This document shows positions 542 through 63,611 of a stretch of DNA of 64,000 bases, one piece after another. The stretch is from Candidatus Latescibacterota bacterium. GTDB lineage: Bacteria; Latescibacterota; UBA2968; GCA-2709665. Both the position numbers and the translations under genes were made by a program. The notes beneath the pieces are model-generated. The model made no database searches, had not been told where the DNA came from, and saw only the letters and a list, made by a program, of their open reading frames with translations. Within the stretch, counting starts at the first letter, position 1. Every line of letters starts with the position of its first letter. The stretch lies in contig OZ244744.1 of the NCBI GenBank assembly GCA_965219455.1, positions 1,312,001-1,376,000 on the forward strand. Reading direction: 5' to 3'.

Positions 542-2222
542 CCTGACTAATTCATGAAACTGAACGGAACAGTGTTTTTGGAAGTAGAAAGTGATCTGTA
601 GAAGGGAAAATAGTCGAATGACGTGTTGGTGACGCGATGATGAGTAATTTTGGGTGTGCCGTCAGCATTGAGGGGTGTCGAGTGCTTTGATTTGTGGTTG
701 GAAAGGACAGACGGATGCCTTGGTCTTACTTCGTGGCGATGAGAAAGGGATGGATCGGCCGGCGTGAAACGGCGTTATGGATATGCCTTTGCCAAATTAC
801 AGAGGATGGTGTCATAGAGGTGTTTCAAGGGAAATGAGGTTGGCAAATGGAGTTTGATTTTGGTTTTGAGTTCGGACACTCTCCCGGCGACTTTGAGAAT
901 GCGATTCTGAATGGTATTAAACTGGGCGTGCGTCCATTGGGTAGCCCGGAGTCCTTTTTCGGTAAGGGTCTGCATCAAGACATAAGCGGCACTATGCAGG
1001 AAGAGACGGAAGTGATTGGCTTCGAAGGTGTGACAGGAGGTACGATCGGAATGGAGAAAGGTTTTGTGATTCTTGATGAAGTTTTCCATCCTGCCGCGCG
1101 CGCAATAGACGGTTTTGTAGATGAATGAGGGCTGGCTACTTTTCAGGTTGGTGACGACAAAGCGTGTATTGGCTTGTCCGGAAGCGGTGATTTCAGCTTT
1201 GTAGATGATGCGCCTTGGCACGGCCCAGGTATGGGCTTGGTAAGCGAAACAGGTAAATAACTGCACGGGCTGTCCGGTTTCCCGATACTGGGCCTTTGCC
1301 TGCTCGATCAACGCGTGTCCCCGTTGTGCAAGCCTGGCATTGCCCGTCTGTCCCAGCACAAAATACACGTCTTGCTCGTCGCAAAAGTCGTGGACCTCAG
1401 GACAGGAAAAATGGCCATCGCCACGCAAAAAGATACGCACGTCCGGCCACGCCTCACGAAGGATTTTCACCAGTCGCTTAAGAATGCTGACAATCTGTTT
1501 GCCGGTAGGACGGGCGCCCGGACGCAGCAGCGTCGTGATCAGTCTTCCTGTCCGGCCTTCATAAATGTGCAAGGGACAGTAACAGCGTTCATCGTAATAG
1601 CCATTGAACAACGACAACTGTTGCTTGCCGTGAACCTCGTCATCGGTGTCATCGATATCCAGAACGACCGCGTCGGGAGGCCTATCGTAGGACGCGATAA
1701 ATCCGTCCACAAGGGCCTCGGCAATACGATATAAGTCCCTGCGACGAATCCCGTTTTCCAATCGACTCATCGTGGGTTGGCTGGCCAACGGCGCCCCTGA
1801 TATCGGCAACCGATCACAGGCCGCCTTGAACGCAGGGTCCTCGCGCAACACATTGCAATCGTTCGCGTCTTCATACGCGCACGCGATCTGAAAGACACGC
1901 TGGCTGATCAGGTCCACCATCGTGTGATCCACATAACTTGGATGCCGACGGTCCGTTAACGCCTCGACGATCCGAGACAGGATGCCGATTCTGGACGCCA
2001 CCTCACGAAGCAGCATCAACCCGATATCGCTGGTGAGCACACCGCCATCGAAGACGGCTTCCACCTGCTTGCCCGAAACACTTGCGAAAGGAAGTGCGAG
2101 TTGACTATCTTGAACTTCCACGGTAGTTTCCTCCCGGTTCATTGTTGTATGGTTATCGGTCTAACCATAATATAATACAATGACTTGGGTAAGGAAACTA
2201 CCTTTTTTATGAATTATTCGGG
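542..2222 (-). mobile_element. IS1380-family insertion sequence
   Basis: Terminal inverted repeats CCTGACTAATTCATGAAA (542-559) and CCCGAATAATTCATAAAA (reverse complement, ending 2222). Target duplication CTAA at 538-541 and 2223-2226. Encodes a transposase. Confidence 0.93.
775..2142 (-). CDS. IS1380-family DDE transposase
   Basis: 455 aa. Motifs FDGGVLTSD, YEDANDC, LASQPTMSRLE, VLDIDDTDD, RGDGHF and RGRMENFIK are typical of IS1380 transposases. Confidence 0.95.
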   Translation of the reverse strand: MNREETTVEVQDSQLALPFASVSGKQVEAVFDGGVLTSDIGLMLLREVASRIGILSRIVEALTDRRHPSYVDHTMVDLISQRVFQIACAYEDANDCNVLREDPAFKAACDRLPISGAPLASQPTMSRLENGIRRRDLYRIAEALVDGFIASYDRPPDAVVLDIDDTDDEVHGKQQLSLFNGYYDERCYCPLHIYEGRTGRLITTLLRPGARPTGKQIVSILKRLVKILREAWPDVRIFLRGDGHFSCPEVHDFCDEQDVYFVLGQTGNARLAQRGHALIEQAKAQYRETGQPVQLFTCFAYQAHTWAVPRRIIYKAEITASGQANTRFVVTNLKSSQPSFIYKTVYCARGRMENFIKNHKTFLHSDRTSCHTFEANHFRLFLHSAAYVLMQTLTEKGLRATQWTHAQFNTIQNRILKVAGRVSELKTKIKLHLPTSFPLKHLYDTILCNLAKAYP

Positions 2223-2718
2223 CTAATACATTTCGAAGTTGAATGTCTTCCTCGTTGCCCAGGACGATGAAGTAAATATTTGATTCGAGATCATATCCAT
2301 ATTCCCATCTAATTCTCTGAAGCGCACGCGCATAGTCGTAATTACCTCCGGTACCATATACGACATGAACCATGGGTTCACCTGGTGCATCTGTTTCATA
2401 ATTGAAGGTTCTTTCTCCGAACCCGTGCGCGCTTATCTGGTCTTCATAAATGCGCTGTACTTCCCGAATGGTTGTCTTCATCTTATCGACCACTTCTTGC
2501 CTGAACCCCTGCGGGTCGGACACGAAGTAGATCATCCTTACGGTGCGCGGCTCTCCCGCATCCAGGAGGGCCGGCTTGGCCGCTGCAGGTTGAGTTTGGC
2601 GATAGTGCTCAAGTTTCGCCAAATCGACCGGGACGCAAAAATGACTACTATCCTCCGCAGCATCGCTCACTGACGAGATCAGCAGGCATAAGGACAGGTT
2701 AAATATGAACTTTTTCAT
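2223..2718 (-). pseudogene. N-terminal part of the IS-interrupted secreted metzincin-family gene
   Basis: RBS GGAGG, then ATG at 2718. Signal peptide MKKFIFNLSLCLLISSVSDA. The motif GEPRTVRMIYF is shared with both intact paralogs. Confidence 0.85.
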
Positions 2719-14009: not shown

Positions 14010-14040
14010 GGAGTACCGCGTGCCATCGGCATGTCGAGAC

Positions 14041-14677
14041 GTTGAGGAGGCGCGTGTGAAGGTGGGGTAGACATTCCTGTCTGCCCTTCTCATTGTCCGC
14101 CTGCCGCCTGAAGAGGGATGGCAACCTCTCCCCCGGCCCCTCCCCGACGCGGGGAGGGGAGCAGTGCCTCACGTGCCGCCTGGCAGGCCGCGCGAGTGAC
14201 GGACGCTCAGGTCTCATTCGACGCTGCAGTAGATCCTTCGTCAGCCTGGCGCCTGCCTGTGCCGGGCACGGCAGACAGGGCTTCCTCAGGATGACAGTTT
14301 GTGCCGAGACCTGACAGACAGGTTTCGCGGATGCTGATTGCAAAGCATGTCATTCTGAGCGAAGTCGAAGAATCTCCCGTCTTCACGCTTGTCCTTAACG
14401 CCAAACACGCGGTAAACACATTTGCGCGGAGACGTCGTCGGCATCGAAGCGGGCAGACAGGAATGTCCGCCCCACCTTCAAAAACGTTCCGTCCTCAGGA
14501 TGACAGGTTGTGCCAAGACCTGACGGACAGGTTTCGCCAATGGTTATTGCAAAGCATGTCATTCTGAGCGAAGTCGAAGAATCTCCCGTCTACTCGATTG
14601 GCCTTAACGCCAAAAACGCGGTAAACACATTTGCGCGGAGACATCGTTGGCATCGGGGCAGGCAGGCCCCACCTTCA
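14041..14677. repeat. Composite repeat region (REP-like hairpins plus a 209-bp tandem duplication)
   Basis: 14283-14480 is repeated at 14492-14677. Includes TGTCATTCTGAGCGAAGTCGAAGAATCTC, CCCCTCCCC...GGGGAGGGG and GGGCAGACAGGAATGTC(T/C)GCCCCACC units. Confidence 0.85.
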
Positions 14678-14725
14678 GACTTGTCTCCTCCGCATGACAG
14701 TTGCAACTATCGACCCCCTGTCATT

Positions 14726-16975
14726 CTACGCCGCCTTGCCGAAGGCCCAGGCGAAGACCAGGAAGTCCGCAAAGCCGATTGTCCCGTCCCGGTCCAGGTC
14801 AAAGCGCGGGTCGTAACCGACCTCGCCCCGGCTGAATCCGAACTTCGCGGCGAATTTGACGAAATCGCCAAAACCCACCTCGCCGTCGCCGTCGAAGTCC
14901 GGGACACGCGATTGTGTGGACGTAAACGAAGCCGTATCCCACAAATAGATCCAGAAGTCGGATGCGGCGGCCAACACGCCGCCGTCGGGCGAGAACGCTA
15001 TCGATTTGACCCAACTTGGCTGGGCGAACGTGTCAACTAACTTTTCACTCGTCACGTCCCACAGGTCGACCCTCCCAAGGCCTGAATCGGCTGCCAGGGC
15101 GCCGCCGTCGGGCGAGAACGCCACGTCCCCTACTCTTCGGTCACCCGCATCGAGCGTGGCGATGTGTTGCCGGGACGCCACGTCCCACAGTCTGACGGTA
15201 CCTTCCGTCGACCCCGAGGCCAACAGGCCGCCGTCGGGCGAGAACGCCACGGAATTGACGTGGTTGCCATGACCTTCCAGCGTGGCGATCTCTTCCCGGG
15301 ACGCCACGTCCCACAGCTTGATCGTCCTATCACCAGACCCCGAAGCCAGGGTGGTCCCATCGGGCGAGAACGCCAGAGACCTGACGCCTTGTGAAGTAGT
15401 ATGCCCCTTCAACGTCGCGATCTCTTCCCGGGACGCCACGTCCCACAGTATCACGGTACTATCCGATACCGAGGCCAACAGGTCGCCGTCCGGCGAATAC
15501 GCCACGGACCTGACGTAGTTGCCATGCCATTCCAGCGTGGCGACCTCTTCCCGGGACGCCACGTCCCACAGTGTGACGTTACCCTGCCACAATCCCGACG
15601 CCAGAGTGCTCCCATCGGGCGAAAACGCCACAGACGCGACCCCGTAAGTGTTAGGCGCTTCGAGCGTGGCGAGGTGTTGCCGGGACGCCACGTCCCACAG
15701 TCTGACGGTACCTTCCGTCGACCCCGCGGCCAATAGGCCGCCGTCAGGCGAGAATGCCACAGAGGTGAAAGCATCACAAGATTGATCCTTAAGGGACGCC
15801 AGGTGATACGGCGACTGTTGCGCAATCACAGACGAGACGGTTCCCGTGTTCCCATGCGTATCCGTAGATATACCCCACAAGAAATGCGCAGGGGAATCCG
15901 AAAGACTCGAATTGCGCTGGCCTGGTATAACGCCGTCATACTCGAACGCGACGATGGTCTCCGTTTCGCCTGCCAACATACGGCACGCCTTGACGTTCGG
16001 GATTGCACCCACTCGCCATTGGCGGGGGCTGCGAACCATCAGGATCACCTGGTGAACGCCATCCGGGTCGCTCACCCTCATCGGGATGGTCACGTGCGTC
16101 GAGCCGGCAGGATACCAGCGCGTGGGGGCGATGAATTCGATGGTGGGCCGCGATGACCAATCGGTTTCCTGTGAGATCTCGGGATTGAACCAGGACGCCA
16201 CCGACAGATATCCCGCCGAGCAGGCCGACAACCGCCACCGACTTCTTCCGCCAGACGACATGACGTGGTTTTTATCGCGGTAATCGTGCCAATCTATCCC
16301 GAAAGCATGGCCCAGTTCATGGGCGACTGTATTGAATCCGAAGCCTGCCGAAACGAACGCATAACCGTTGTTCTTATTCCCATTTCCCATTCCTGACCAC
16401 CCTCCGCCAGAGATATCGTAAATATGATCTTTACTGTTGTCAACAACGACAAGGTACACGTGGTAACGTCTTTCATACTCCCGAAAAATCTCGTTCAAGG
16501 AACGGTTACTCGTGGCTTTGAGATAATAGGCGTCGCCGTGATCGCCGTCCACGCGGTGCACCAGGGGCTCACCCTCCGAATCCGTCTCATAGCGGAAGTT
16601 CATCCCCCCGTACCCGTGCGCAGCCATCTGCTCTCCGAAGAACGTATGCGTCAGACGCATCATCGTCTTCATCGAATCCACCACCTCCTGACGATAGGGA
16701 CGGTCGTTCGGCAGAAAGTAGATCATGCGCACCGTGCGCGGCTCTCCCGCGTTCTTTTCCGCCGCCGCCTTCCCCGCATGCGGCAGATCCTCCCGCAGCC
16801 ACGCCTCGTCATCCACCACCGCGCCTGCCTGCGTACCGCGGACAGACAGGCAGAAGTGCACGCCGTCGGCAGGCGGCGACGAAACAGTAGCCACCGTCGG
16901 CAGACAGAGCACTACCAGTAAACACGCCGCCAGCGTGAACATCGACGTCAGCCAACGATCGCTCGATCTCTTCAT
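14726..16975 (-). CDS. Secreted metzincin-like peptidase + WD40 beta-propeller + dockerin/EF-hand-like C-terminus
   Basis: Signal peptide; HELGHAFGIDWH...HVMS; about 7 SVAFSPDG...LWDV repeats; PDFDGDGEVGFGDF...DLDRDGTIGFADF. Confidence 0.9.
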   Translation of the reverse strand: MKRSSDRWLTSMFTLAACLLVVLCLPTVATVSSPPADGVHFCLSVRGTQAGAVVDDEAWLREDLPHAGKAAAEKNAGEPRTVRMIYFLPNDRPYRQEVVDSMKTMMRLTHTFFGEQMAAHGYGGMNFRYETDSEGEPLVHRVDGDHGDAYYLKATSNRSLNEIFREYERRYHVYLVVVDNSKDHIYDISGGGWSGMGNGNKNNGYAFVSAGFGFNTVAHELGHAFGIDWHDYRDKNHVMSSGGRSRWRLSACSAGYLSVASWFNPEISQETDWSSRPTIEFIAPTRWYPAGSTHVTIPMRVSDPDGVHQVILMVRSPRQWRVGAIPNVKACRMLAGETETIVAFEYDGVIPGQRNSSLSDSPAHFLWGISTDTHGNTGTVSSVIAQQSPYHLASLKDQSCDAFTSVAFSPDGGLLAAGSTEGTVRLWDVASRQHLATLEAPNTYGVASVAFSPDGSTLASGLWQGNVTLWDVASREEVATLEWHGNYVRSVAYSPDGDLLASVSDSTVILWDVASREEIATLKGHTTSQGVRSLAFSPDGTTLASGSGDRTIKLWDVASREEIATLEGHGNHVNSVAFSPDGGLLASGSTEGTVRLWDVASRQHIATLDAGDRRVGDVAFSPDGGALAADSGLGRVDLWDVTSEKLVDTFAQPSWVKSIAFSPDGGVLAAASDFWIYLWDTASFTSTQSRVPDFDGDGEVGFGDFVKFAAKFGFSRGEVGYDPRFDLDRDGTIGFADFLVFAWAFGKAA

Positions 16976-17051
16976 ACCAGCATCACTCCTTTCGGGTCAT
17001 TGCCAACGTCACATCAAACACAGTCTCTTGACGCGCGACCGGACGGCGACC

Positions 17052-17422
17052 CCTCCCCCGGCCCCTCCCCGACGCGGGGAGGGGAGCAGTGCCTCACGTG
17101 CCGCCTGGCAGGCCGCGCGAGTGACGGACGCTCAGGTCTCATTCGACGCTGCAGTAGATCCTTCTTCAGCCTGACGGCTTCCTCAGGATGACAGTTTGTG
17201 CCGACGGGTGGCCGACACAGTTCGCCAATCGCTATCGCAATACATGTCATTCAGAGCGCAGCGAAGAATCTCCCGTCTTCTCGATTGGACGTGGAGCGGA
17301 AGCCTTCACCAGCCCATTTGCGCGGAGACATCGTCGGGCATCGAGGCGGGCAGACAGGAATGTCCGCCCCACCTTCACACACGCTTCCTCACAGTGCGGG
17401 CGCCCACAAGGGACGCCCCTAC
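17052..17422. repeat. Composite repeat, direct copy of ~14128-14480
   Basis: Near-identical run from CTCCCCCGGCCCCTCCCCGACGCGGGGAGGGGAGCAGTGCC to CCTCAGGATGACAGTTTGTGCCGA, then GTCATT...GAAGAATCTCCCGTC and a REP. Confidence 0.85.
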
Positions 17423-17525
17423 ACTGGCATCGGGGCGTGATGCGCATGGCCTGCCTGACAGGTGGGGTGGGTGTGTCGTGAAATGCGTCGCTGCTGTCAC
17501 ATTTTGCGACAGTGGGAGGGACATA

Positions 17526-20030
17526 TTACGACGTCGATTTACCGAAGGCCCCGGCGAAGATGAGAAAGTCCGCGAACCCGATCGTCCCGTCCCCATCCAG
17601 GTCGCACCGGACGTCGTACCCTTCGTCGCCCTGACGTTGTCCGAACTTTGCCGCAAACAGCACGAAATCGCCAAAGTCTATCTCCCCGTCGCCATTCACG
17701 TCGGGGCTGCCATGGGCACGCGCCGTAAAGACCGCCGGCTCGAGATCGGCCGCGCGCGCCACCACGGTGTTCATCCCCGCCTCCCTGCCCAGCGTCAAGG
17801 TCGTGGTGGCGTTCCCGCTCGTATCGGCCCTGGCGGCCGTTGCCGATACCGCGCCGCCGCCGTCGGTTACGGTAAACAGCACGGGCATGTCCGGAAACGG
17901 GTCTCCGTGCTCGTCACGCACCGACACCACGAACGGCGCGGCCAATGCCGACGCCACCGCACCCTGCTGCCCATCGCCAGAGACCGTCCTCACGAGAACG
18001 GGACGCCGGCGCACCCACTCGGAGGTGTCCCACACCTCTATCCTGCCTCTGTAGGTTGACGCCGCCAGCACGGACCCGTCGTGCCAATAGGCCAGCGAAG
18101 AGATCGAGCCGGTATGCGGCAGCCTCTCGTAGAGCTTCCCCGTGGCGGCGTTGCGCAGGATCACCGTACCTTCCGGGCCCCCCGAGGCCAGGATCTCCCC
18201 GTCCGGCGAAAACGTCAGATAATTGACCGTAGGCGCATGCACCATGGGCAGGTCCGCGATAATGTTCCGCGCGGCCGCGTCCCACAGCGCGATCAACCCC
18301 TCGGCCCCCGCGGTGGCAGCCAGCACGCGCCCGTCAGGCGAGAACGCGATTGAATTGATGCCTCTCCCGCCGGGCCGCACAAGCCGGTACCGTACCTTGC
18401 GCGCGGCCACGTCCCAGAGCCCGATGGAATAGTCGTATGAAGCCGACGCCAGGATGCTGCCGTCAGGCGAAAACAGCAACTGTGAAATTGAGCCGGTATG
18501 CCCTTTCAGGACGCCCATCAGTTCTCCGGTGGCCACGTCCCATACCTTCATCTTGTCCTCGTCGGAAAATGCGCCCGAGATCAGCGTCGCGCCGTCGGGA
18601 GAGAACGCCAACGCAAGCGTCCACCACGTATGCCCTGCCAGCGTGCCCGTCCGCTCCCGCGACGCCACGTCCCACAGCGTGATCCAGCCGTCTACGGTTC
18701 CCGCGGCCAGCATCGACCCGTCCGGCGAGAACGCCAGCGACCGAATCTCGCTGTCGCTCCCGCTCAGGGTGGCCGTCTCTTCATACGTCTTCGTATCCCA
18801 CAGCTTGATGGTGCTGTCCCCCGATCCCGATGCCAGCGTCGTCCCGTCGGGGGACATTGCGAGCTGTCGGACGAATTTCGTATGTCCTTCCAGCGTGGCC
18901 AGGTGATACGGCGACCGCTGTGCGAACGTCCACCCCTCGTAGCCCTGATCACCTCGCTTGTCCACCGCCAGGAATCCGATATAATGGGATGGCGGATCCG
19001 ACAACGACGTGATGGTTCTACGGCCGGGTACCACGCCGTCATACTCGTACTCGATGACCGCTTCCTTCCCCCCCGACAGCGTGCGGCACGCCTTGAGTTC
19101 GAGAATAAAGCTCCCGCCGATGGGGTCCGAAATCAACATGGTCAGCTGATGCAGGCCGTGACGCGCCTTGAGCTTCAGACGCACGGTAATGCTTTGCGAA
19201 CCCTCTTCATACCACAAGGGCGACAGCAGCTCAACCGTGGGGCGTGCGTCCCAATCCCATTCAAGGGGGACCTCCGCGTTGAAAAAAGGGTGCACGGACA
19301 GGAACGCCGCGCTGCACGCCGATAGACGATCTCTTCCGCGCACTATCGAGAGGATGTGCGCGTGATCCCGGGAATCGTGGTAGAGCATCCCGAAGGCGTG
19401 CGCCAGTTCGTGCGCGGCTGTGTCGAAGCTGACACCGCCGGGAACGTACACCATCCCTCCATCCTTGCCACCGGCCGCCCTGCCTGCCGGGGCGCCAAAA
19501 GGACCCAGTCTGTGTCCGAAGCGGTTGTCGATCACGATGAACAGAACGACGTTGGCCGGATCATACGCGTCCCTGACCTCCCTTTGCACCGTTTCCGTCA
19601 TACGGTTGTCATAATAGCGGTCCGCGTGGGCGCCGTCCAGGCGGTGCACCACGGGCTCGCCATCCGCGTCCGCCTCATAGCGGAACGTCGTATAACCATA
19701 CCCGTGCGATTCCATCTGCTGTCCGAAGAACCGCTGCAGACGCACCATCATCGCCTTCATCGTATCCACCACCGACTGCCGGTACGGACGGTCGTTCGGC
19801 AGAAAGTAGATCAGTCGCACCGTACGCGGCTCGCCTACGTTCAACTCCGACGCAACCTTGCCCGCAACAGCAGCATCGTCCCGCCGCGCCTCGTGATCCA
19901 GCACCTCGCAGCGGTACTCACCCACGGCAGGCGGCGACGCGGGACCCGGAGCCGGGTAGCAGAGCAATGCCAGAAAGCACGTCGCCAGCGTCAACGTTAC
20001 TTGCAAACGATCAACAATCCATCTATCCAC
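17526..20030 (-). CDS. Secreted metzincin-like peptidase + WD40 + invasin-type Ig domain + dockerin/EF-hand-like C-terminus
   Basis: HELAHAFGMLYH; WD40 repeats; VSGDGQQG...PFVVSVRD...VLFTVTDGGG Ig module; PDVNGDGEIDFGDF...DLDGDGTIGFADF. Confidence 0.9.
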   Translation of the reverse strand: MDRWIVDRLQVTLTLATCFLALLCYPAPGPASPPAVGEYRCEVLDHEARRDDAAVAGKVASELNVGEPRTVRLIYFLPNDRPYRQSVVDTMKAMMVRLQRFFGQQMESHGYGYTTFRYEADADGEPVVHRLDGAHADRYYDNRMTETVQREVRDAYDPANVVLFIVIDNRFGHRLGPFGAPAGRAAGGKDGGMVYVPGGVSFDTAAHELAHAFGMLYHDSRDHAHILSIVRGRDRLSACSAAFLSVHPFFNAEVPLEWDWDARPTVELLSPLWYEEGSQSITVRLKLKARHGLHQLTMLISDPIGGSFILELKACRTLSGGKEAVIEYEYDGVVPGRRTITSLSDPPSHYIGFLAVDKRGDQGYEGWTFAQRSPYHLATLEGHTKFVRQLAMSPDGTTLASGSGDSTIKLWDTKTYEETATLSGSDSEIRSLAFSPDGSMLAAGTVDGWITLWDVASRERTGTLAGHTWWTLALAFSPDGATLISGAFSDEDKMKVWDVATGELMGVLKGHTGSISQLLFSPDGSILASASYDYSIGLWDVAARKVRYRLVRPGGRGINSIAFSPDGRVLAATAGAEGLIALWDAAARNIIADLPMVHAPTVNYLTFSPDGEILASGGPEGTVILRNAATGKLYERLPHTGSISSLAYWHDGSVLAASTYRGRIEVWDTSEWVRRRPVLVRTVSGDGQQGAVASALAAPFVVSVRDEHGDPFPDMPVLFTVTDGGGAVSATAARADTSGNATTTLTLGREAGMNTVVARAADLEPAVFTARAHGSPDVNGDGEIDFGDFVLFAAKFGQRQGDEGYDVRCDLDGDGTIGFADFLIFAGAFGKSTS

Positions 20031-20116
20031 GTCGCCATCACTCCCTTCACGTTATTGGCGACATCACATCACCCTCAGTCCCTCATTGGAGTACAATCAG
20101 CCTTCAATCACAGTAA

Positions 20117-23100
20117 TCATTGTCCGCTTTGCGCCGCCGCGTCGCTCTCGATATAGCCCGTCAGGATCACGAAATCCGCGTAGTTGATCGTCCCGTCGCC
20201 GTTCAGGTCCATCCGCCTGTCAAACCCCGCATCCGACCTGCCCAGCCCCATCTTCTTATTGAACAACGCCGCATCCGCGGCATCCCGCCTCCCGTCGCCA
20301 TTGAAATCCCCCGGCAGCGCGACGGTCATCCTGAACGACGTGGTTACCCGCCGGTCGTCCTCGTCGTCGACGACAACCGTTACCGTGGCGCTGCCCAGTT
20401 GCGTAGGGGTGCCGCCGATACGCCCGCTTGACGAAATGGAGATGCCGGCGGGTTCGCTTTCCAGGTCATACGTATACGATCCCCTGCCACCGGATACCGA
20501 CACCTGGATCGGGTCCATGTCAAGCTGCCACGTCACCACCACGTCCGAAATCGAGGCGATGGTCAACGGAGCACTGACACGCAACTGAAACGACGGGGTC
20601 GTCGCCGTTACGCCCTTCTTATCGGTGACCGTCACCGTCGCCGTGGACGTGCCCGTGCTTGTCGGCGTGCCGCTGATACGTCCGCTGGATCGGTTGAAAT
20701 TTACCCACGAAGGCTTGCCCGACATCGTGAACGCAAACGGTGTCTCACCTCCGGACGCCGACGCCGCTCTTGCAGGCATCTCCTGCCCCACGGTCGCCTC
20801 CACGTCGCGGATGTCGGCAATCTCCAGCGGCGGATCTACGACCTCGATCTCGAACGTTGTCGTGCCCCAACAGCCGCCGGCATCCGTCGCCTTCACCGTC
20901 ACGAGGTATGTGCCGGTTGTGTTCGGGGCCCTGCCGCTGATGGCCCCGCCGGTGGATACCGTCACCCACGACGGTCCGATCTCCTTCCTGAACGTATACG
21001 GCGACTGACCTCCGGAGGCGCGGGCCGTCATCGAAGGCATATTCTCATCCACCTCCACCTTCACGTTATCCAGGCCGCCCACAGTTATTGTCGGACATGT
21101 TACGGTGACATTGATTGAACCCGGGCCGGTATTCCCTTCCGCGTCCGTCGCCGTCACGCCGAAGGTGTAGGGGCCAGGCGCCGTGCCTGACGGCGGTTCA
21201 ACGGTGTATTCGTTGCTCCCCGTTTTTCTCACCCAACCCAGCCCGCCTGGATCCCCAAATGTCTTCGTCCCGCATCCCCCTTCCGCGCTCACGGTCACCG
21301 TCGCCGTCTCCCCGGCCGGCACCACCACCGGATCCGGGTTCTGCGTGACCGTGATCGGCGGACATTCAACCTCGATCTCGAATTCTTCATCGTCGGAATT
21401 GTTCCTATTGTCTCTGTCCGTCGCCGTCACCGTAACGTCGTAGGTTTTCTCGATGGGCCCCACGTTGCCTTCGATAAACCCCGTGTCAGAGACAATCCCT
21501 ACGCCCGTCGGCTGGCCTGATATGGAAAATTCAGCCGTCGGGCATGCAGGAATCACACTGGCCGTGAGCCCTATCTCCGTACGTGGCGTCACCTGCATAT
21601 TCTGGATCTCCCGGATGACGAACGGCGCGCAGACAACAGTGATCATGAAATCCTCGTCGTCGGTATTGTTCCTATTGACCATGTCCCTCGCCGTCACCCT
21701 CACGTTGTATTCACGGACGTCGTCCCCCACGCTACCGGTGATGACCCCGGTGTTCCGATCAATCTCTAAACGTCCAGGCGCGCCCGTCATCGACCATTTA
21801 ATCGACCCGCATCCCCCGGACGCATGCGGCGTGATTGTGATGCGTGTATTCACCGGCACCGTCTTGTTTGAGATCGGATCGATGACAACCGGCTCACAGA
21901 CGGTGATTTCAAACGAACACGTTGCCGTACTGTCAGGCGCATCCTCGACGGTCACCTCGACATTGTATTCGCCTGCCGGCGTCGCCGTCCCGCTGATCGT
22001 TCTATCCCCATCGTTTGATGGTTGTGTTGATATACCCAGAGTTAATTCCGACGGGCTGATAGACAAAGGATCAAACGTATACGGCGTAGTACCCCCTGAC
22101 GCCGTCGCCGTCAGCGAGATGGTCGCACCCTCCTTTACCGTCTGGTCCGCCGGGCACGTGATGGTCAGGTCTCGAATTTCGTCGAGTGTCGTCACCGTTT
22201 TGCTCGTCGAGCCGCCTTCACCGCAAGGGTTCCACGCAAGCACCTCGAAGGTATACGCAGTCCCTGCGTTTAAATTTGGCACCGTATGGCTCGTCGTGAG
22301 GCCTATCCCGGTCCAATTCTCCGGCAAATCCACTGTAGATTTCGCATATCTGACTCGATTTTCTGTGATCATGCCGCTCGGATTGGTCCACGACAATACC
22401 ACCTGCCTGACTCCCGCGGTCGCATTCAGGTTGGTCACGTCTCCTGGAACGGACCCCGTCGTGGTTGCCGTCGCGATGTCCGCATCGCCTACACTGTTAT
22501 TGGGGCAATCGTTCTTCGCGCGCACCTGGAATGTATATTCCTCGCAGACGTCCAGACCTTGCACCGTATGGGTCGTCGTTTCGCCTATGCTGGTCCACGT
22601 CGACCACAGGGGTGTGTCTGATACCTTATATCTGACGTGATTGTCTATAATCGTGCCACTCGGATTGGTCCACGACAATGCCACCTGTCCGACTCCCGCG
22701 GTCGCATTCAGGTTGCTCACCGCCCCTGGCGCTAAGCATGGCGGCGGCGGCGGAGGTGGAGGTGGCGGTGGCGGCGGCGGTGTGACGGTCTCCTGCCGTG
22801 GCGTCGCCATTGCCCTTGCCGAGTCGCCGTGGACCATCCCTGCTTTCGCGCGCGCCTCGAACGTATACTCGATCCGGTTGGTCAACCCCGTCACTACGTG
22901 GCGCGTCGTGTTGGGACCGCTATCGGTTATTTCGCTCCAATCAGGCAGCGCCAACGTGCTTCTGGCATATCGGAGCTGATAACCAATTACGGCGGCGTCA
23001 CGAGGATCAGACCACGTCAGCGTCACCTTCCTGTTTCCTGACGCCGCCCTGAAATTGGCGGGCTTCGCAGGCACGGGCGTGGCCGTCACGCGGGCCGAAG

Positions 23101-26100
23101 CGCCTTCATCGTCCCCTGCTTTCGCGCGCACCTCAAAGGTATACTCGATCCCGTTCGTCAGCCCCGGCACCGTGTGGCGCCTGGCCGTGGCATCGTTCGG
23201 ATCGATATCCAGCCACACGGGATTGGCGGGCGGGCTTCCGCGATAACGGTGGTACTGATAGCCGGAGATGTCGGTGTCACCGGGATCATCCCACGTCAGC
23301 GTCGCCTGCCTGTCCCCCGGCGATGCCTCAAGCCCCGCCGGCGCGTCTGGCGGCAGGGTAACGGTCACGCTGGCACGTGCTCCGGGACCCGTTGCGTTTA
23401 CGGCCCGCACCTCGAACGTATTCACGGTTCCGTTGGTCAACCCCGTCACTATGTGGCGCCTCGCGGCGGCATCGTTTGGATCGATATCCACCCACACGGG
23501 ATTGGCGGGCGGGCTTCCGCGATAACGGTGGTACTGATAGCCGGAAATGTCGGTGTCACTGGGATCATCCCACGTCAGCGTCACCTGTCCGACGCCCGCC
23601 GCCGCGTTCAGGCCCTCAGGCGGCGGCCCGGTGTGGAACATGACGGTTACCGTATTCGACCAGTCGCTGAACTCTTCACCACGGCTGGCGAGCACCTTGT
23701 ATGCGATGTATGGATACCCCCGCTCACGGGCAATGGTGTCCACCGTACGCGTATCGGCGTCTGGCGTACCAAAGATCCCGTGACGCATCACATTCACGCC
23801 GTCCGACGAGAGACTGTAATGGAAATGATAACTCGTCACGGATGCGAGGTCGGCCGTCGGCGCCTCCCAGGTCAACACCACAGTGCCGTTGTCGATCGTC
23901 GCTTCGAGATTGACGGGCGCGCGGTTCCCCGGCATCGCCGTAACGCTGGCCGGTGCGCCAGGATACGCACCCGCAACCGCACGCACCTCGAACGTATACT
24001 CGATGCCGTTCGTCAACCCCGGCACCGGGTGCGTCGTCGTAACGGCTATATCATGCCAACTTTCCGGTAGCGACGTGGGGTCGTCCCCATAGCGCACCTG
24101 ATAACCCGTGATGGCGTCGTCCTCCGGGTCAGCCCACGTCAGCGTCACCATCCGGTCATCCTCCCTCGCCGTGAGGTTGCCCGGCGGCGGGGGCGGCGCA
24201 GGCACGTCGATACGCGCGGCGTTGGACGAACCGCTGAGATAGATGTCGCGCTGCGTCTTCACCCGGTACACGTAGCTGTGTCCCGCCTCCGCGCCGGCGT
24301 CGACGTACGTGGTTTCCGTGGCGCCCGTGGCGCCGATCGAGTGAGAGACACCTGCCGCGTCAACGTCCGGCCGCCGCCGCAGAACCCGGTAGCCCGTAAT
24401 CGGCGCGGCGACGGTGGCCGGCGCCTCCCAGGTGAGGGTGACCGCGCCGTTGACCAGGGACGCGTTGAGATTGCGCGGCGGCGGCAGGTCAGGGGTGGCC
24501 CTCACACTGGCCGGCAGGCCATGAACGTCCCCGCTTATCGCGCGTACCTGGAACGTATACTCGACCCCGTTCGTCAAGCCCGTCACCTCGCGCGTCGTCG
24601 TGCTCGCTCCGGGCTCCGGGCTCACGGAAATGACGGTCCATTCCGCCGGTGCTTCACCCACGCCGTAGCGTATTTCATACCCGGTCACGTCGGGTGTATC
24701 CAAATTGTCCCACGTCAGCGTCACCGCCCTGTCACCCGCCGACGCCGTGAGGTTGTCCGGCGCGGCGGGCGGCGGCACATCAAGCATCACCGTCACGCTG
24801 GCCGTTTTGCCGGGATAATCACCCGCAACCGCACGCACCTGGATCCTATACTCGACCCCGTTCGTCAGATTTCCAACCGTGTGTTCCGTCGTGTTGGGGC
24901 CGCTGGGATCGATTGCCGTCCAATCGGGATCCCACGCGCCGTTTGCACGATAGCGGATCTCGTACCGGATGATGGCATCGTCGTCCGGATCCACCCACGT
25001 CAGCGTCACGGCGCCGTCACCCACCACGGGCGATCCCACCCATACGGGCGGATCGGGGACCGGCACCGCCGTCACGCTGGCCGATAGGCCCTCGACGTCG
25101 TCCACCCTTGCGCGCACCTCGAACGTATATTTCCTGCCGTTGTTCAGACCTTCCACGATATGTTCCGTCGTCGCCGGGCCGCTGTCGCCGATGATATGGG
25201 CATCGCTCCACTCCGGCAGGGCCATCGAACTCTCCGCCCAGCGTACCTGATACCGGGTGATATACGGGTTTTCCGGATCCCGCCACGTCAGCGTCACCTC
25301 CCCGTCACCCGGCAACGCCGTGAGGTTGTCCGGCGCGGCCTGCCGCGCCCCCGGCGTCGCCGTCGCGCGCGACGCTTCGCTGTAGCCGCCCGCGTTCCGC
25401 AACTGCACCTGGAACCAGTACTCGACCTCGTTCGTCAGGTCCTCCACCGTGCGCGTCATCGTGCGCTCACCGCTTGCAACGTCATCTTCAACGATCGAAT
25501 CAAGCGTGCCCGACACGCGTGTCCGATAACGCACCAGGTATCCCGTTATCGCGTGGTCGCCCGGCACGTCCCACGTCAACGTCACCTCACCGTCACCCGC
25601 CGTCGCCATCAGGCCCTCCGGCCGCGGCGGCGGCGCGGGCACGTACACGAGAACCTCGGCGGAACCACGGCTGAGCGTTTCGCCGTACATCGCCTTCACC
25701 TGATAGATAATGCTATCGTCAAACCCCACGTCCTCGTCCGTATACGTCCGCACCATGGCCCCGGTTGCGGCGAGCACGCGGAAACCCCCCTCGGCATTGT
25801 CTCCCGGAAAACGCCACAGCACCTGGTACCCCGTAACCGACCCGGCGGCGAGTGCGGGCGCGTCCCACGTCAGCACCACGATGCCATCCGCCACCGTGCC
25901 CCTCAGATTGGCCGGCGGCGGCGGCGCCGTCCTCACCGTCACGCTGTCCGATGCGCCGGGAACCTCCCCCGCAACCGCGCGCACCTCGAACGTATACCGG
26001 GTACCGCTCATCAGATCCACCACCGTGTAGATCGTGGTCGTGCCGATTTCAAGGACGGAATCGTCGCTCCAGGCCGGACGATCGGCGCCGGCCACACCAT

Positions 26101-26605
26101 AACGGATCTCGTATCCCGTGATGTACGCGTCCTCAGGATCGGACCACGTCAGCGTCACTTCCGTCAACCCAGGCGACGCCCGGAGGCGTTTCGGCTCCGC
26201 AGGCGGCATCCTGACCGTCACCCTGGCCGATGCGCCGGGAACCTCCCCTGCCATCGCACGCACCTCGATCGTATACTCTTTACCGTTCCTCAACCCCACC
26301 ACCGTGTGCTCCGTCGTGTTCGCAGGGCTGTCAACGTAATGATCGTGGCTCCACTCAGGCATTGACGTACCGGTTTCCCAATAGCGGACCTGGTATCCCG
26401 TCACGCGGGGGTCTTCCGCAGCTACCCACCTCAGCCATACCATCCGGTCCAGGGCAATCGCTTCCAACTCGACCGGCGGCTCAGGCGACGGCGCCGTCCT
26501 CACCGTCACGCTGTCCGATGTGCCGGGAACCTCCCCCGCAACCGCGCGGAACGGGATGCGGAAGGCCAGAGGGACCACGGGCGGTTTGCGATGATCGGGT
26601 TGCAA
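20117..26605 (-). CDS. Giant fibronectin type III/putative Ig repeat surface protein with C-terminal dockerin-like module
   Basis: 2162 aa. Many VTLTW...GYQ/YEI...GLTNG.EYTFEVRA Fn3 units, a poly-Pro linker (~22740-22780), Ig repeats with SGG..PYTF, and C-terminal GDFNGDG...DLNGDGTINYADF. Confidence 0.9.
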   Translation of the reverse strand: MQPDHRKPPVVPLAFRIPFRAVAGEVPGTSDSVTVRTAPSPEPPVELEAIALDRMVWLRWVAAEDPRVTGYQVRYWETGTSMPEWSHDHYVDSPANTTEHTVVGLRNGKEYTIEVRAMAGEVPGASARVTVRMPPAEPKRLRASPGLTEVTLTWSDPEDAYITGYEIRYGVAGADRPAWSDDSVLEIGTTTIYTVVDLMSGTRYTFEVRAVAGEVPGASDSVTVRTAPPPPANLRGTVADGIVVLTWDAPALAAGSVTGYQVLWRFPGDNAEGGFRVLAATGAMVRTYTDEDVGFDDSIIYQVKAMYGETLSRGSAEVLVYVPAPPPRPEGLMATAGDGEVTLTWDVPGDHAITGYLVRYRTRVSGTLDSIVEDDVASGERTMTRTVEDLTNEVEYWFQVQLRNAGGYSEASRATATPGARQAAPDNLTALPGDGEVTLTWRDPENPYITRYQVRWAESSMALPEWSDAHIIGDSGPATTEHIVEGLNNGRKYTFEVRARVDDVEGLSASVTAVPVPDPPVWVGSPVVGDGAVTLTWVDPDDDAIIRYEIRYRANGAWDPDWTAIDPSGPNTTEHTVGNLTNGVEYRIQVRAVAGDYPGKTASVTVMLDVPPPAAPDNLTASAGDRAVTLTWDNLDTPDVTGYEIRYGVGEAPAEWTVISVSPEPGASTTTREVTGLTNGVEYTFQVRAISGDVHGLPASVRATPDLPPPRNLNASLVNGAVTLTWEAPATVAAPITGYRVLRRRPDVDAAGVSHSIGATGATETTYVDAGAEAGHSYVYRVKTQRDIYLSGSSNAARIDVPAPPPPPGNLTAREDDRMVTLTWADPEDDAITGYQVRYGDDPTSLPESWHDIAVTTTHPVPGLTNGIEYTFEVRAVAGAYPGAPASVTAMPGNRAPVNLEATIDNGTVVLTWEAPTADLASVTSYHFHYSLSSDGVNVMRHGIFGTPDADTRTVDTIARERGYPYIAYKVLASRGEEFSDWSNTVTVMFHTGPPPEGLNAAAGVGQVTLTWDDPSDTDISGYQYHRYRGSPPANPVWVDIDPNDAAARRHIVTGLTNGTVNTFEVRAVNATGPGARASVTVTLPPDAPAGLEASPGDRQATLTWDDPGDTDISGYQYHRYRGSPPANPVWLDIDPNDATARRHTVPGLTNGIEYTFEVRAKAGDDEGASARVTATPVPAKPANFRAASGNRKVTLTWSDPRDAAVIGYQLRYARSTLALPDWSEITDSGPNTTRHVVTGLTNRIEYTFEARAKAGMVHGDSARAMATPRQETVTPPPPPPPPPPPPPPCLAPGAVSNLNATAGVGQVALSWTNPSGTIIDNHVRYKVSDTPLWSTWTSIGETTTHTVQGLDVCEEYTFQVRAKNDCPNNSVGDADIATATTTGSVPGDVTNLNATAGVRQVVLSWTNPSGMITENRVRYAKSTVDLPENWTGIGLTTSHTVPNLNAGTAYTFEVLAWNPCGEGGSTSKTVTTLDEIRDLTITCPADQTVKEGATISLTATASGGTTPYTFDPLSISPSELTLGISTQPSNDGDRTISGTATPAGEYNVEVTVEDAPDSTATCSFEITVCEPVVIDPISNKTVPVNTRITITPHASGGCGSIKWSMTGAPGRLEIDRNTGVITGSVGDDVREYNVRVTARDMVNRNNTDDEDFMITVVCAPFVIREIQNMQVTPRTEIGLTASVIPACPTAEFSISGQPTGVGIVSDTGFIEGNVGPIEKTYDVTVTATDRDNRNNSDDEEFEIEVECPPITVTQNPDPVVVPAGETATVTVSAEGGCGTKTFGDPGGLGWVRKTGSNEYTVEPPSGTAPGPYTFGVTATDAEGNTGPGSINVTVTCPTITVGGLDNVKVEVDENMPSMTARASGGQSPYTFRKEIGPSWVTVSTGGAISGRAPNTTGTYLVTVKATDAGGCWGTTTFEIEVVDPPLEIADIRDVEATVGQEMPARAASASGGETPFAFTMSGKPSWVNFNRSSGRISGTPTSTGTSTATVTVTDKKGVTATTPSFQLRVSAPLTIASISDVVVTWQLDMDPIQVSVSGGRGSYTYDLESEPAGISISSSGRIGGTPTQLGSATVTVVVDDEDDRRVTTSFRMTVALPGDFNGDGRRDAADAALFNKKMGLGRSDAGFDRRMDLNGDGTINYADFVILTGYIESDAAAQSGQ

Positions 26606-26890
26606 AGCGTTTCTCCCTTCCTGAGTTGAACGATTCCGGTTCGCTATGGTGAATTATTCACGAAGACCGGTGGTTGTGTTGTATAACCGGTTGTATTTCA
26701 ATAAATTCAGCGAAGTCTTGTACGACAGCATCTAACGAAATGCGGAATCTGATGGGTCAGGGTGACGTTGCGCGGTCTACAGAGGTAAGGATTCATCGCT
26801 TTGGCCCGGAAAAGTGAGCATTTGTCCTGCTTTTGGTTTTTATCCTGTCCATCCATGCAAGTTTGGGTTTTTGAATGAACGAGGCTATAA

Positions 26891-26919
26891 TTGACATCGC
26901 GACACAGGTTCCATATATT
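26891..26919 (+). promoter_or_regulatory. sigma70 promoter of duplicated RNA unit, copy 1
   Basis: TTGACA-17 bp-TATATT. Confidence 0.7.
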
Positions 26920-27046
26920 CCCGTATAGTGAGGGCCGCATTCCGTCTCACGGCGCAAAAGCGCTACGGGATAAAAAAGGATGTGCGCCTTCCTGGATAAC
27001 CGTCGGTTTTGACTCTGGCAGGTCAGGGAACCGACGGTTTTTTTTT
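26920..27046 (+). ncRNA. Putative structured small RNA of unknown family, copy 1
   Basis: Lies between the promoter and a terminator hairpin (AACCGTCGGTT...AACCGACGGTT + T-tract). Near-identical copy at 63486-63611. Confidence 0.6.
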
Positions 27047-27359
27047 GGTTGTCGGGTTAACAGCCCGTTGAGCTATGGACGTTGGGCTTCAGCGCCTTTT
27101 CGTATGACCCGGAATATAGGGGTCACGCGCGGGATGTGCAAAATATTTATTAATTTTCATTGGCAGATATATAAACAAAACTTTACGTTGTTATCTACTT
27201 TTTTCCGTATTCGTCTACAAATCCTGACGGTCCTGCACGCGATTTCTCCGGCGGCGGCGGACTTTCACGGTCACGACCGACTCGTCGCCGTTGTGGGCAG
27301 CACTCGACGACCGGGTGCAAGTGTCGCATTTTGCGACAGTCGATGCCTGGCGCACACAT

Positions 27360-27397
27360 AAAAAAAAGGAGCCGGAAAATCCGGCTCCTTTTTTTTC
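27360..27397. terminator. Bidirectional intrinsic terminator ending the methyltransferase operon
   Basis: A-tract-GGAGCCGGA-AAA-TCCGGCTCC-T-tract. Confidence 0.85.
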
Positions 27398-63456: not shown

Positions 63457-63485
63457 TTGACATCACAACACAGGTTCCATATATT
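63457..63485 (+). promoter_or_regulatory. sigma70 promoter of duplicated RNA unit, copy 2
   Basis: TTGACA-17 bp-TATATT. Confidence 0.7.
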
Positions 63486-63611
63486 CCCGTATAGTGAGGG
63501 CCGCATTCCGTCTCACGGCGCAAAAGCGCTACGGGACAAGAAGGGATGTGCGCCTTCCTGGATAACCGTCGGTTTTCGACTCTGGCAGGTCAGGGAACCG
63601 GCGGTTTTTTT
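63486..63611 (+). ncRNA. Putative structured small RNA of unknown family, copy 2
   Basis: Near-identical to 26920-27046, ending in a terminator hairpin and T-tract. Confidence 0.6.

Follow-up and report, generated by a model that had tools for sequence, protein, structure and literature searches.

The 64,000-nt window analyzed here (G000:C1:1312001-1376000) is part of a 5.84-Mb Latescibacterota genome (G000) and contains two copies of a cassette in which a promoter is followed by a candidate small RNA (sRNA) gene with a terminator-like end, at 26891-27046 (copy 1) and at 63457-63611 (copy 2; genome 1375457-1375611). Copy 1 lies on an island of ~13.3 kb (14020-27360), delimited by comparison with congeners and by Pfam annotation, together with two WD40 genes, a minus-strand gene for an fn3/He_PIG/dockerin repeat protein of 2162 aa (20117-26605) and an AT-rich block. 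Judging from Pfam domains and gene orientation, the start of the repeat-protein gene faces the RNA promoter at a distance of 285 nt. On the plus strand, a promoter scan revealed TTGACA (26891-26896) and TATATT (26914-26919) with a 17-nt spacer (26891-26919; 11/12 matches). The predicted RNA of ~120 nt (26926-27046, plus strand), whose 5' end was placed from the -10 box, was delimited by nhmmer and covariance-model matches and by its fold. It comprises a 5' domain (26930-26991), which forms a single long irregular hairpin in both the consensus fold and the fold of copy 1, and a 3' domain (26999-27046), in which folding and an inverted repeat (I5) identified a 10-bp stem (ACCGUCGGUU/AACCGACGGU), an inner GACU/GGUC helix and a T-run at 27039-27046. 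Further to the right are a minus-strand promoter-like site found by the promoter scan (TTTGCA-18-TATATT, 27113-27142), which is directed toward the fn3/dockerin gene, and the AT-rich block (27143-27230), which was defined by block search and minus-strand consensus and contains two direct repeats (~27182-27198 and ~27202-27218) with a 19- to 20-nt period. As an earlier note on this DNA had observed, copy 1 has no downstream gene on its sense strand; the next gene is a minus-strand homocysteine S-methyltransferase gene. We consider the chances about even that the cassette represents a new family of cis-antisense (countertranscript-type) sRNAs which would control the gene on the opposite strand, and which has been amplified in G000 on strain-variable islands.

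Both window copies were recovered by coordinate check and genome BLAST at the positions given earlier and share 95% identity (E 1.6e-65, whole-genome BLAST). Pairwise alignment revealed strong identity from the -35 hexamer to the T-tract and no alignment of the flanks. The differences listed earlier between the two copies were all confirmed: the promoter spacer has two and the A-rich linker three, the internal loop of the 3' hairpin differs by a 1-nt indel, and the terminator stem shows an A/G exchange (U-A versus U-G). In copy 2, the promoter (TTGACA-17-TATATT, 11/12 in the promoter scan) occupies 63457-63485 (L016 5007-5035), and the RNA, as located by alignment, genome BLAST and a covariance-model match, occupies 63492-63611, with the 5' hairpin at 63496-63557, the terminator hairpin at 63565-63605 and a T-run extending to 63611, all on the plus strand. 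Copy 2 has neither an AT block nor an opposite-strand gene on its 5' side and looks like an orphan copy. The earlier note had counted two copies only; however, iterated nhmmer searches of the genome returned 18 matches, 12 of them full-length and 6 partial (1 with the 5' part only and 5 with the 3' hairpin only), a lower bound that leaves at least 12 full-length places in G000. One of the full-length copies (copy 3; L016 6217-6372) lies 1.2 kb beyond copy 2, just past the window edge. The RNA copies are 75-95% alike.

A covariance model built from the 12 full-length in-genome copies matched 13 of the 22 genomes of the family and 24 of the 53 genomes of the order. G000 has 15 covariance-model matches and no other genome has more than 5, most carrier genomes being single-copy; in a second family of the order, 11 of 31 genomes have one match each. 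The near relatives found with a hairpin-derived pattern include five metagenome-assembled genomes labelled Candidatus Latescibacterota and one labelled Gemmatimonadota. The metagenome contigs searched yielded one member (L118), and there were no matches in the viral contigs, plasmid collection or phage collection searched. The earlier failure to assign the element to any known RNA family was borne out by Rfam 15, which had no matches at gathering thresholds in the 64-kb window; a scan of 18 further loci found nothing at the element and otherwise only two tRNAs. The best sub-threshold scores belonged to ctRNA_pT181 (RF00242; 21.4 bits versus a gathering threshold of 56, E 1.8) and mir-1324 (14.6 bits versus 70). 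No small RNA is described for Latescibacterota in Rfam 15 or in the literature searched. This distribution suggests an RNA family restricted to one order of Latescibacterota.

Both ends of the candidate gene are conserved. The exact TTGACA-17-TATATT promoter is present in 19 of 41 members, and at least 9 of 12 positions match in 34 of the 41; the hexamers are kept even where the 5' domain has changed and the adjoining sequence diverges. In the terminator-like end, the 10-bp stem precedes a tract of 8-9 T in copy 1 and of 6-7 T in copy 2. The terminator rule of the scan tool (loop of 3-8) does not cover the full two-tier hairpin; it reported no terminator at copy 1 or copy 2, and at copy 3 it detected the inner part only. 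With its own conserved promoter and terminator-like end, and with convergent 3'-side neighbors in 20 of the 36 loci where these could be called (16 being on the same strand), the element appears to be a stand-alone unit rather than a leader, as had been proposed. It is probable that we are dealing with a genuine transcribed sRNA family.

The predicted fold of copy 1 has a free energy of -53.6 kcal/mol (z = -4.4), and none of 200 shuffles was as stable. In the consensus, a long irregular 5' hairpin is followed by a two-tier 3' hairpin and a U-run. From the outside to the apex, the helices of the 5' domain are GAGGGC/GCCUUC, CGCAUUC/GGAUGUG, GUCUC/GGGAU and a GGCGC-AAAA-GCGCU hairpin; of the outer strands, the 5' one is rich in purines and the 3' one resembles CCUUC. 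In the 3' domain, which is the part kept in partial copies and in distant genera, 96% of the alignment cells are paired and the loop sequences are conserved across genera. When 41 distinct sequences were aligned to the model, 89.7% of the cells were paired versus 38-49% for slid partners and two-sided changes occurred in 21 of 39 pairs, values that none of 500 shuffles reached. An unfitted MAFFT alignment of 30 sequences gave two-sided changes in 12 of 33 pairs versus 6.2 ± 1.6 in shuffles (0/500), with 87.8% of the cells paired versus 31-44% for slid partners; its covariation score was equalled by 10 of 500 shuffles. For helix 1, two-sided changes were counted in 11 of 14 pairs in the model-fitted alignment and in 4 of 13 in the MAFFT alignment. 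Overall, the picture is mixed: covariation is evident across genomes but not above chance among the 12 in-genome copies alone, and it gives moderate structural support for the RNA fold.

The individual helices suggested in the earlier note fared less well. GTGAG/CTCAC and GGCGCA/TGCGCC were paired in 67.6% of cells, the same as in shuffles, and 183-407 of 500 shuffles were as good. The putative pseudoknot between GCATTCC and GGATGT turned out, from the fold and the pair counts, to be an ordinary nested helix of the one long irregular hairpin. CCCGTA/TACGGG is present in copies 1 and 2 but absent elsewhere, because the 5' stretch varies in the other copies.

The two window copies had been described as lying in unrelated contexts. 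Instead, the copies share a larger module, and most of them tend to face a gene on the other strand head-to-head, in antisense to its leader. The 5'-side neighbor is on the opposite strand in 27 of the 32 loci called with a crude GC-frame gene filter (7 of 39 loci gave no call), and in 12 of 39 loci the opposite-strand start lies no more than ~70 nt from the RNA promoter region. Ten opposite-strand 5'-side genes were scanned against Pfam: four encode LRR proteins, which carry fn3/Calx-beta, cohesin or dockerin domains too, one an AraC-type response regulator and one a sigma-54 activator, and four had no match. Genes faced by other copies encode an LRR/fn3/Calx-beta protein of 1426 aa and an LRR/cohesin protein of 1279 aa, or form an LRR operon; in two relatives, copies face LRR/dockerin and LRR/cohesin genes. 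For copy 1, the transcript of the fn3/dockerin gene is the likely target. Several flanking open reading frames (ORFs) had no Pfam or NCBIfam match.

A long form of the RNA lies head-to-head with an AraC-type response regulator gene. This pairing was confirmed by Pfam in G000 (copy 3) and in the relatives G011, G006 and G012, and is visible as DNA homology in G013. Downstream of the regulator-linked RNA the genes vary between these genomes and encode a hybrid kinase, adenosine deaminase together with PRPP synthase, or a sigma-54 activator. More distant genera have a single, shorter copy of the RNA. In one of them, G020 (L073), a merR-like gene (972-1487, plus strand) is followed by the RNA (1625 to 1501, minus strand) and a sigma-70-family gene (1670-2518, plus strand), with the 11/12 promoter of the RNA immediately before the sigma start codon. 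No plus-strand promoter starting upstream of the sigma ATG was predicted between the merR-like and sigma genes; a weak 9/12 site (1642-1671) overlaps the sigma ATG, and a promoter was predicted ahead of the merR-like gene. The merR-like and sigma genes would then form one operon, with the RNA antisense to the spacer between them. A convergent merR-like gene was also read in the flanks after the RNA in G015, G016, G017, G018 and G021, and G045, which belongs to the second family, has the complete merR-like/RNA/sigma arrangement, including the head-to-head sigma gene. In genus g6, the ~125-nt spacer between two co-directional opposite-strand genes is occupied by a member of 98 nt.

The merR-like gene (L073:972-1487; also L123, G045) encodes a MerR-family regulator with a cysteine-rich C-terminal tail and lies downstream of purH and upstream of the sigma-70-family gene. 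This MerR-family/sigma pair is conserved across two families and missing in G000. The sigma orthologue of G000 is accompanied by neither a merR-like gene nor the RNA, and no merR-like gene was found anywhere in G000 by tblastn at E 1e-5. In the leader of the G000 sigma gene, the covariance model finds nothing (best score, 6.8 bits), and resemblance to a complementary remnant is weak by eye.

The larger module extends to both sides of the RNA gene. Upstream of the -35 box, ~70 nt are common to most copies, a block best understood as what is left of the initial codons of the AraC-type response regulator gene on the opposite strand. At copy 3 the regulator gene is intact and its ATG overlaps the -35 box, and upstream of two other copies it persists as a pseudogene with stop codons. 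By tblastn, the C-terminal helix-turn-helix remnant at one copy was detected with an E value of 4e-9 and the N-terminal codons with E values of only 0.007-0.015. We also considered the upstream block as the C terminus of a plus-strand protein; the frames are only 4-86 codons long, and the genome has no intact gene with such an end.

On the other side, the AT block occurs 16 times in the genome, nearly always 70-100 nt past a full or partial RNA copy. It accompanies 10 of the 12 full copies and most of the partial ones, and in relatives it is found beside only some copies. Its minus-strand consensus consists of two direct repeats (19-nt period), followed by TTGNAT-16/17-TATATT aimed back through the RNA gene. 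A minus-strand promoter site equivalent to 27142>27113 was also predicted after another copy by the promoter scan, and the -10 context of the site at 27113-27142 is an inverted repeat (I6) of the sRNA's own -10. Reading the AT block as a plus-strand promoter was rejected: no fitting hexamer pair was evident by eye, and downstream there are at least four unrelated groups and no conserved ORF. A minus-strand promoter fits the block better. There was no sign of the antitoxin or ribozyme that had been suggested. No conserved small ORF lies nearby, and the frames past the AT block differ between copies. A further ~110-nt conserved segment to the right of the AT block (window 27231-27345) ends in a TGTCGCA-TTT-TGCGACA hairpin and is found at four more loci of G000 (genome ~1059026, 1268580, 1271966 and 1545008).

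In the cis-antisense interpretation, which we regard as the most economical one, a structured RNA of ~100-130 nt would be transcribed from its own sigma-70-type promoter and end at the two-tier hairpin and U-run. Its gene would be situated inside the leader or intercistronic spacer of the opposite-strand gene, with the RNA promoter abutting or overlapping the opposite-strand start codon and the terminator abutting the upstream gene or the opposite-strand promoter. An RNA gene so placed would produce an RNA fully complementary to the 5' leader of that mRNA. The two promoters would face each other, and the terminator of the RNA would halt it short of the opposite promoter. Regulation might then occur by duplex formation, by interference between convergent transcription events, or by both, processing being another option. 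The basal form would be the one within the merR-like/sigma-factor gene pair, and the longer form would have become paired with the AraC-type response regulator. In G000, this unit appears to have been copied to at least 12 places, taking along remnants of the start of the regulator's coding sequence and often the AT-rich activator-site/promoter block, and most of these places precede LRR, fn3, WD40 or cohesin-dockerin repeat-protein operons on strain-variable islands. Transcription of the RNA, an opposite-strand transcript that crosses the RNA gene and the regulatory outcome are all inferred from the genomic arrangement.

Several observations weigh against this interpretation. The gene filter behind the 27 of 32 opposite-strand neighbors is crude and the loci are related by descent, so that this count overstates independent support. 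A same-strand gene is present on the 5' side of copy 2 and of the copy at genome 5330224, and no convincing opposite-strand gene was found at the copies at genome 4759982, 4769246 and 4784356. The strongest covariation counts come from the model-fitted alignment, which leans toward the model, and the 12 in-genome copies alone yielded two pairs with two-sided changes, with 94-447 of 500 shuffles reaching the same level. Moreover, the T-run is interrupted in several copies, the regulator-linked copies have no AT block, and the only opposite-strand promoter predicted near copy 3 is weak.

Countertranscript or cis-antisense RNAs include RNA-OUT of IS10, SymR opposite symE and the countertranscript RNAs (ctRNAs) of plasmids. 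Like these, the predicted RNA described here is small and highly structured, has a strong promoter of its own and a terminal hairpin, and would be encoded opposite the 5' leader of the gene that it would control, with the promoters facing each other. It is not a member of the ctRNA_pT181 family by score, this being the only ctRNA model compared in that way. Unlike in the known countertranscript systems, the partners are chromosomal regulator and repeat-protein genes instead of replication or transposase genes, the promoter rather than the RNA covers the start codon, and the family is multicopy with diverged paralogues. Multicopy families of paralogous sRNAs, with several diverged copies per genome that act in trans on shared targets, are also well known in bacteria. 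Their copies, too, each have a promoter and a terminator, whereas the placement of the copies described here argues for partners in cis. Reused or "mobile" prokaryotic promoters (PMC3575422) are closely similar promoter-bearing segments that occur before unrelated genes, within a genome and between relatives. Our copies resemble them in the repetition of a similar promoter-bearing segment before unrelated genes; in contrast to them, the repeated unit is a complete RNA gene with fold and terminator and is joined by a second, opposite-strand promoter with tandem repeats.

A family of stand-alone sRNAs that act in trans on targets elsewhere, with head-to-head placement as a by-product of duplication, would be in line with the promoter and terminator, with the single-copy conservation in many genomes of the order and with orphan copies such as copy 2, which lack an opposite-strand partner. 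It would also account for a 3' hairpin whose sequence is kept beyond the needs of pairing, as expected of a protein- or chaperone-binding module. However, duplication alone hardly explains why an antisense position within a spacer is seen in two families and in three gene contexts that are unrelated to each other. Nor was a conserved unpaired seed identified, since both the 5' tail and the linker vary. We regard trans action as rather unlikely.

Alternatively, the cassette could be a DNA-level repeat devoid of RNA function, either a shared regulatory region left behind when islands were duplicated or transferred, or a site of recombination at their ends. Copies do lie near the ends of strain-variable islands, partial copies exist, the genome is rich in other short repeats, and covariation among the in-genome copies is not above chance. 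Furthermore, DNA contigs assembled from short reads of four public runs show breaks and loose ends at ~26876 and 27042/27043. A mere DNA repeat would nevertheless be hard to reconcile with promoter hexamers that persist in 34 of 41 members next to diverging sequence, with two-sided changes in excess of shuffles across genomes or with single-copy orthologues conserved across two families. Neither terminal inverted repeats nor matches in viral contigs, plasmids or phages were found. This explanation is decidedly improbable in our judgment.

The complementary strand might instead be the functional one: the long leaders of the opposite-strand genes would contain a structured element that regulates in cis, and the promoter and T-run on the plus strand would be incidental. 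The most consistent neighbors are indeed opposite-strand genes with a promoter upstream of the element, and the helix could form on either strand. The alignment, which was fitted on the plus strand, contains 179 G-U cells versus 64 A-C cells, favoring the plus strand, and it is the plus-strand TTGACA-17-TATATT and T-run that are conserved. A minus-strand element is, in our view, quite improbable. A riboswitch-like leader or attenuator, acting by conditional termination at the hairpin on the same-strand genes that follow some copies at 90-650 nt (hybrid kinase, AAA-ATPase/PD-(D/E)XK, Rpn-like), would suit the weakness of some T-runs but is highly improbable given the convergent 3'-side neighbors, which include those of both window copies and of the basal merR-linked loci, the lack of any match to a riboswitch family and downstream genes that are mutually unrelated rather than consistent and related in function.

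If the cis-antisense interpretation holds, the control of strain-variable genes for "eukaryotic-like" proteins in uncultivated bacteria would become open to experimental testing, and the family would illustrate how a gene for a regulatory RNA and its accompanying promoters can be duplicated as a single module. In any case, the family is a specific candidate regulator with conservation throughout an order, located in its basal form at a sigma-factor operon, and its amplification in G000 ahead of large repeat-protein genes is an unusual amplification alongside such operons. A more far-reaching idea, which we regard as unlikely, is that the diverged copies constitute an antisense-RNA network, each in the leader of a different operon for surface or "eukaryotic-like" repeat proteins (LRR, fn3, WD40, cohesin-dockerin). 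With 75-95% identity among the copies, an RNA from one operon could also pair with leaders of the others. Expression of the variable protein repertoire would then be coupled or mutually exclusive, and the module of promoter, antisense RNA and activator site would be a portable cassette that moves with the islands and contains all that is needed for control.

The variability of the islands was evident from comparison with congeners. The ~13.3-kb island with copy 1 is missing in G003, G007 and G009, where the same flanking genes join directly. The copy at genome 3054834 lies, together with an LRR operon, in a 5.5-kb segment that G000 shares with G011 alone when 15 genomes of the genus are compared; both the RNA and the AT block are lacking at the eight "empty" sites inspected. 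Copies 2 and 3 are located within a variable segment of ~6 kb. The module is found at an island end because this is the promoter-proximal end of a leftward operon. Of the "mobile RNA unit" considered earlier, the presence of copies on strain-variable islands was confirmed, but the signs of an autonomous mobile unit were not: no terminal inverted repeats were found around copy 1, as would be expected of a miniature inverted-repeat transposable element (MITE) or the end of an insertion sequence, the searches of viral contigs, plasmids and phages gave no match, and no transposase domain was detected in the neighboring ORFs scanned.

A few further observations concern the surroundings of the copies. 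The right border of the copy 1 island is marked by an inverted repeat of 17 bp without mismatches, bordered by runs of A and T (window 27360-27396). This bidirectional terminator, with which the methyltransferase gene ends, is conserved in relatives. At the "empty" site of G003, ~25 nt resemble, by eye only, the end of the conserved segment beyond the AT block on its right, a hint that the island may have an attachment-like site. In the public DNA runs, one contig in each of two runs, at low depth, joins 27038 to 27191, i.e., the terminator end to the first direct repeat, with 152 nt skipped. Several copies are accompanied by genes for paralogous proteins of 208-340 aa (L022:4626-5507, L023:6217-7134, L023:8468-9490 and L016:4418-5044), which have a weak, sub-threshold likeness to Rpn-family PD-(D/E)XK recombination-promoting nucleases (TIGR01784, E 1e-4), and two other copies are followed by AAA-ATPase_like and PDDEXK_9 genes.

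Two repeats were noted near the copy in the 5.5-kb segment. A 168-bp repeat (L018:5464-5632; G000 ~3055297-3055465) is present in dozens of copies with 88-98% identity in G000 and every congener searched, and behaves like a MITE. A 373-bp repeat (L018:5629-6002) occurs in many copies of ~80-98% identity across the genus; its absence from this site in G011 points to a recent insertion between the AT block and a heparinase gene. Finally, in front of partial copies that consist of the 3' hairpin (G000 ~1059300-1059420, 1268850-1268970, 1272240-1272360 and 5590880-5590980) there is another conserved sequence, with a GC-rich hairpin whose loop is AAGAU. This sequence may be a second type of 5' domain or another RNA that shares the terminator module.

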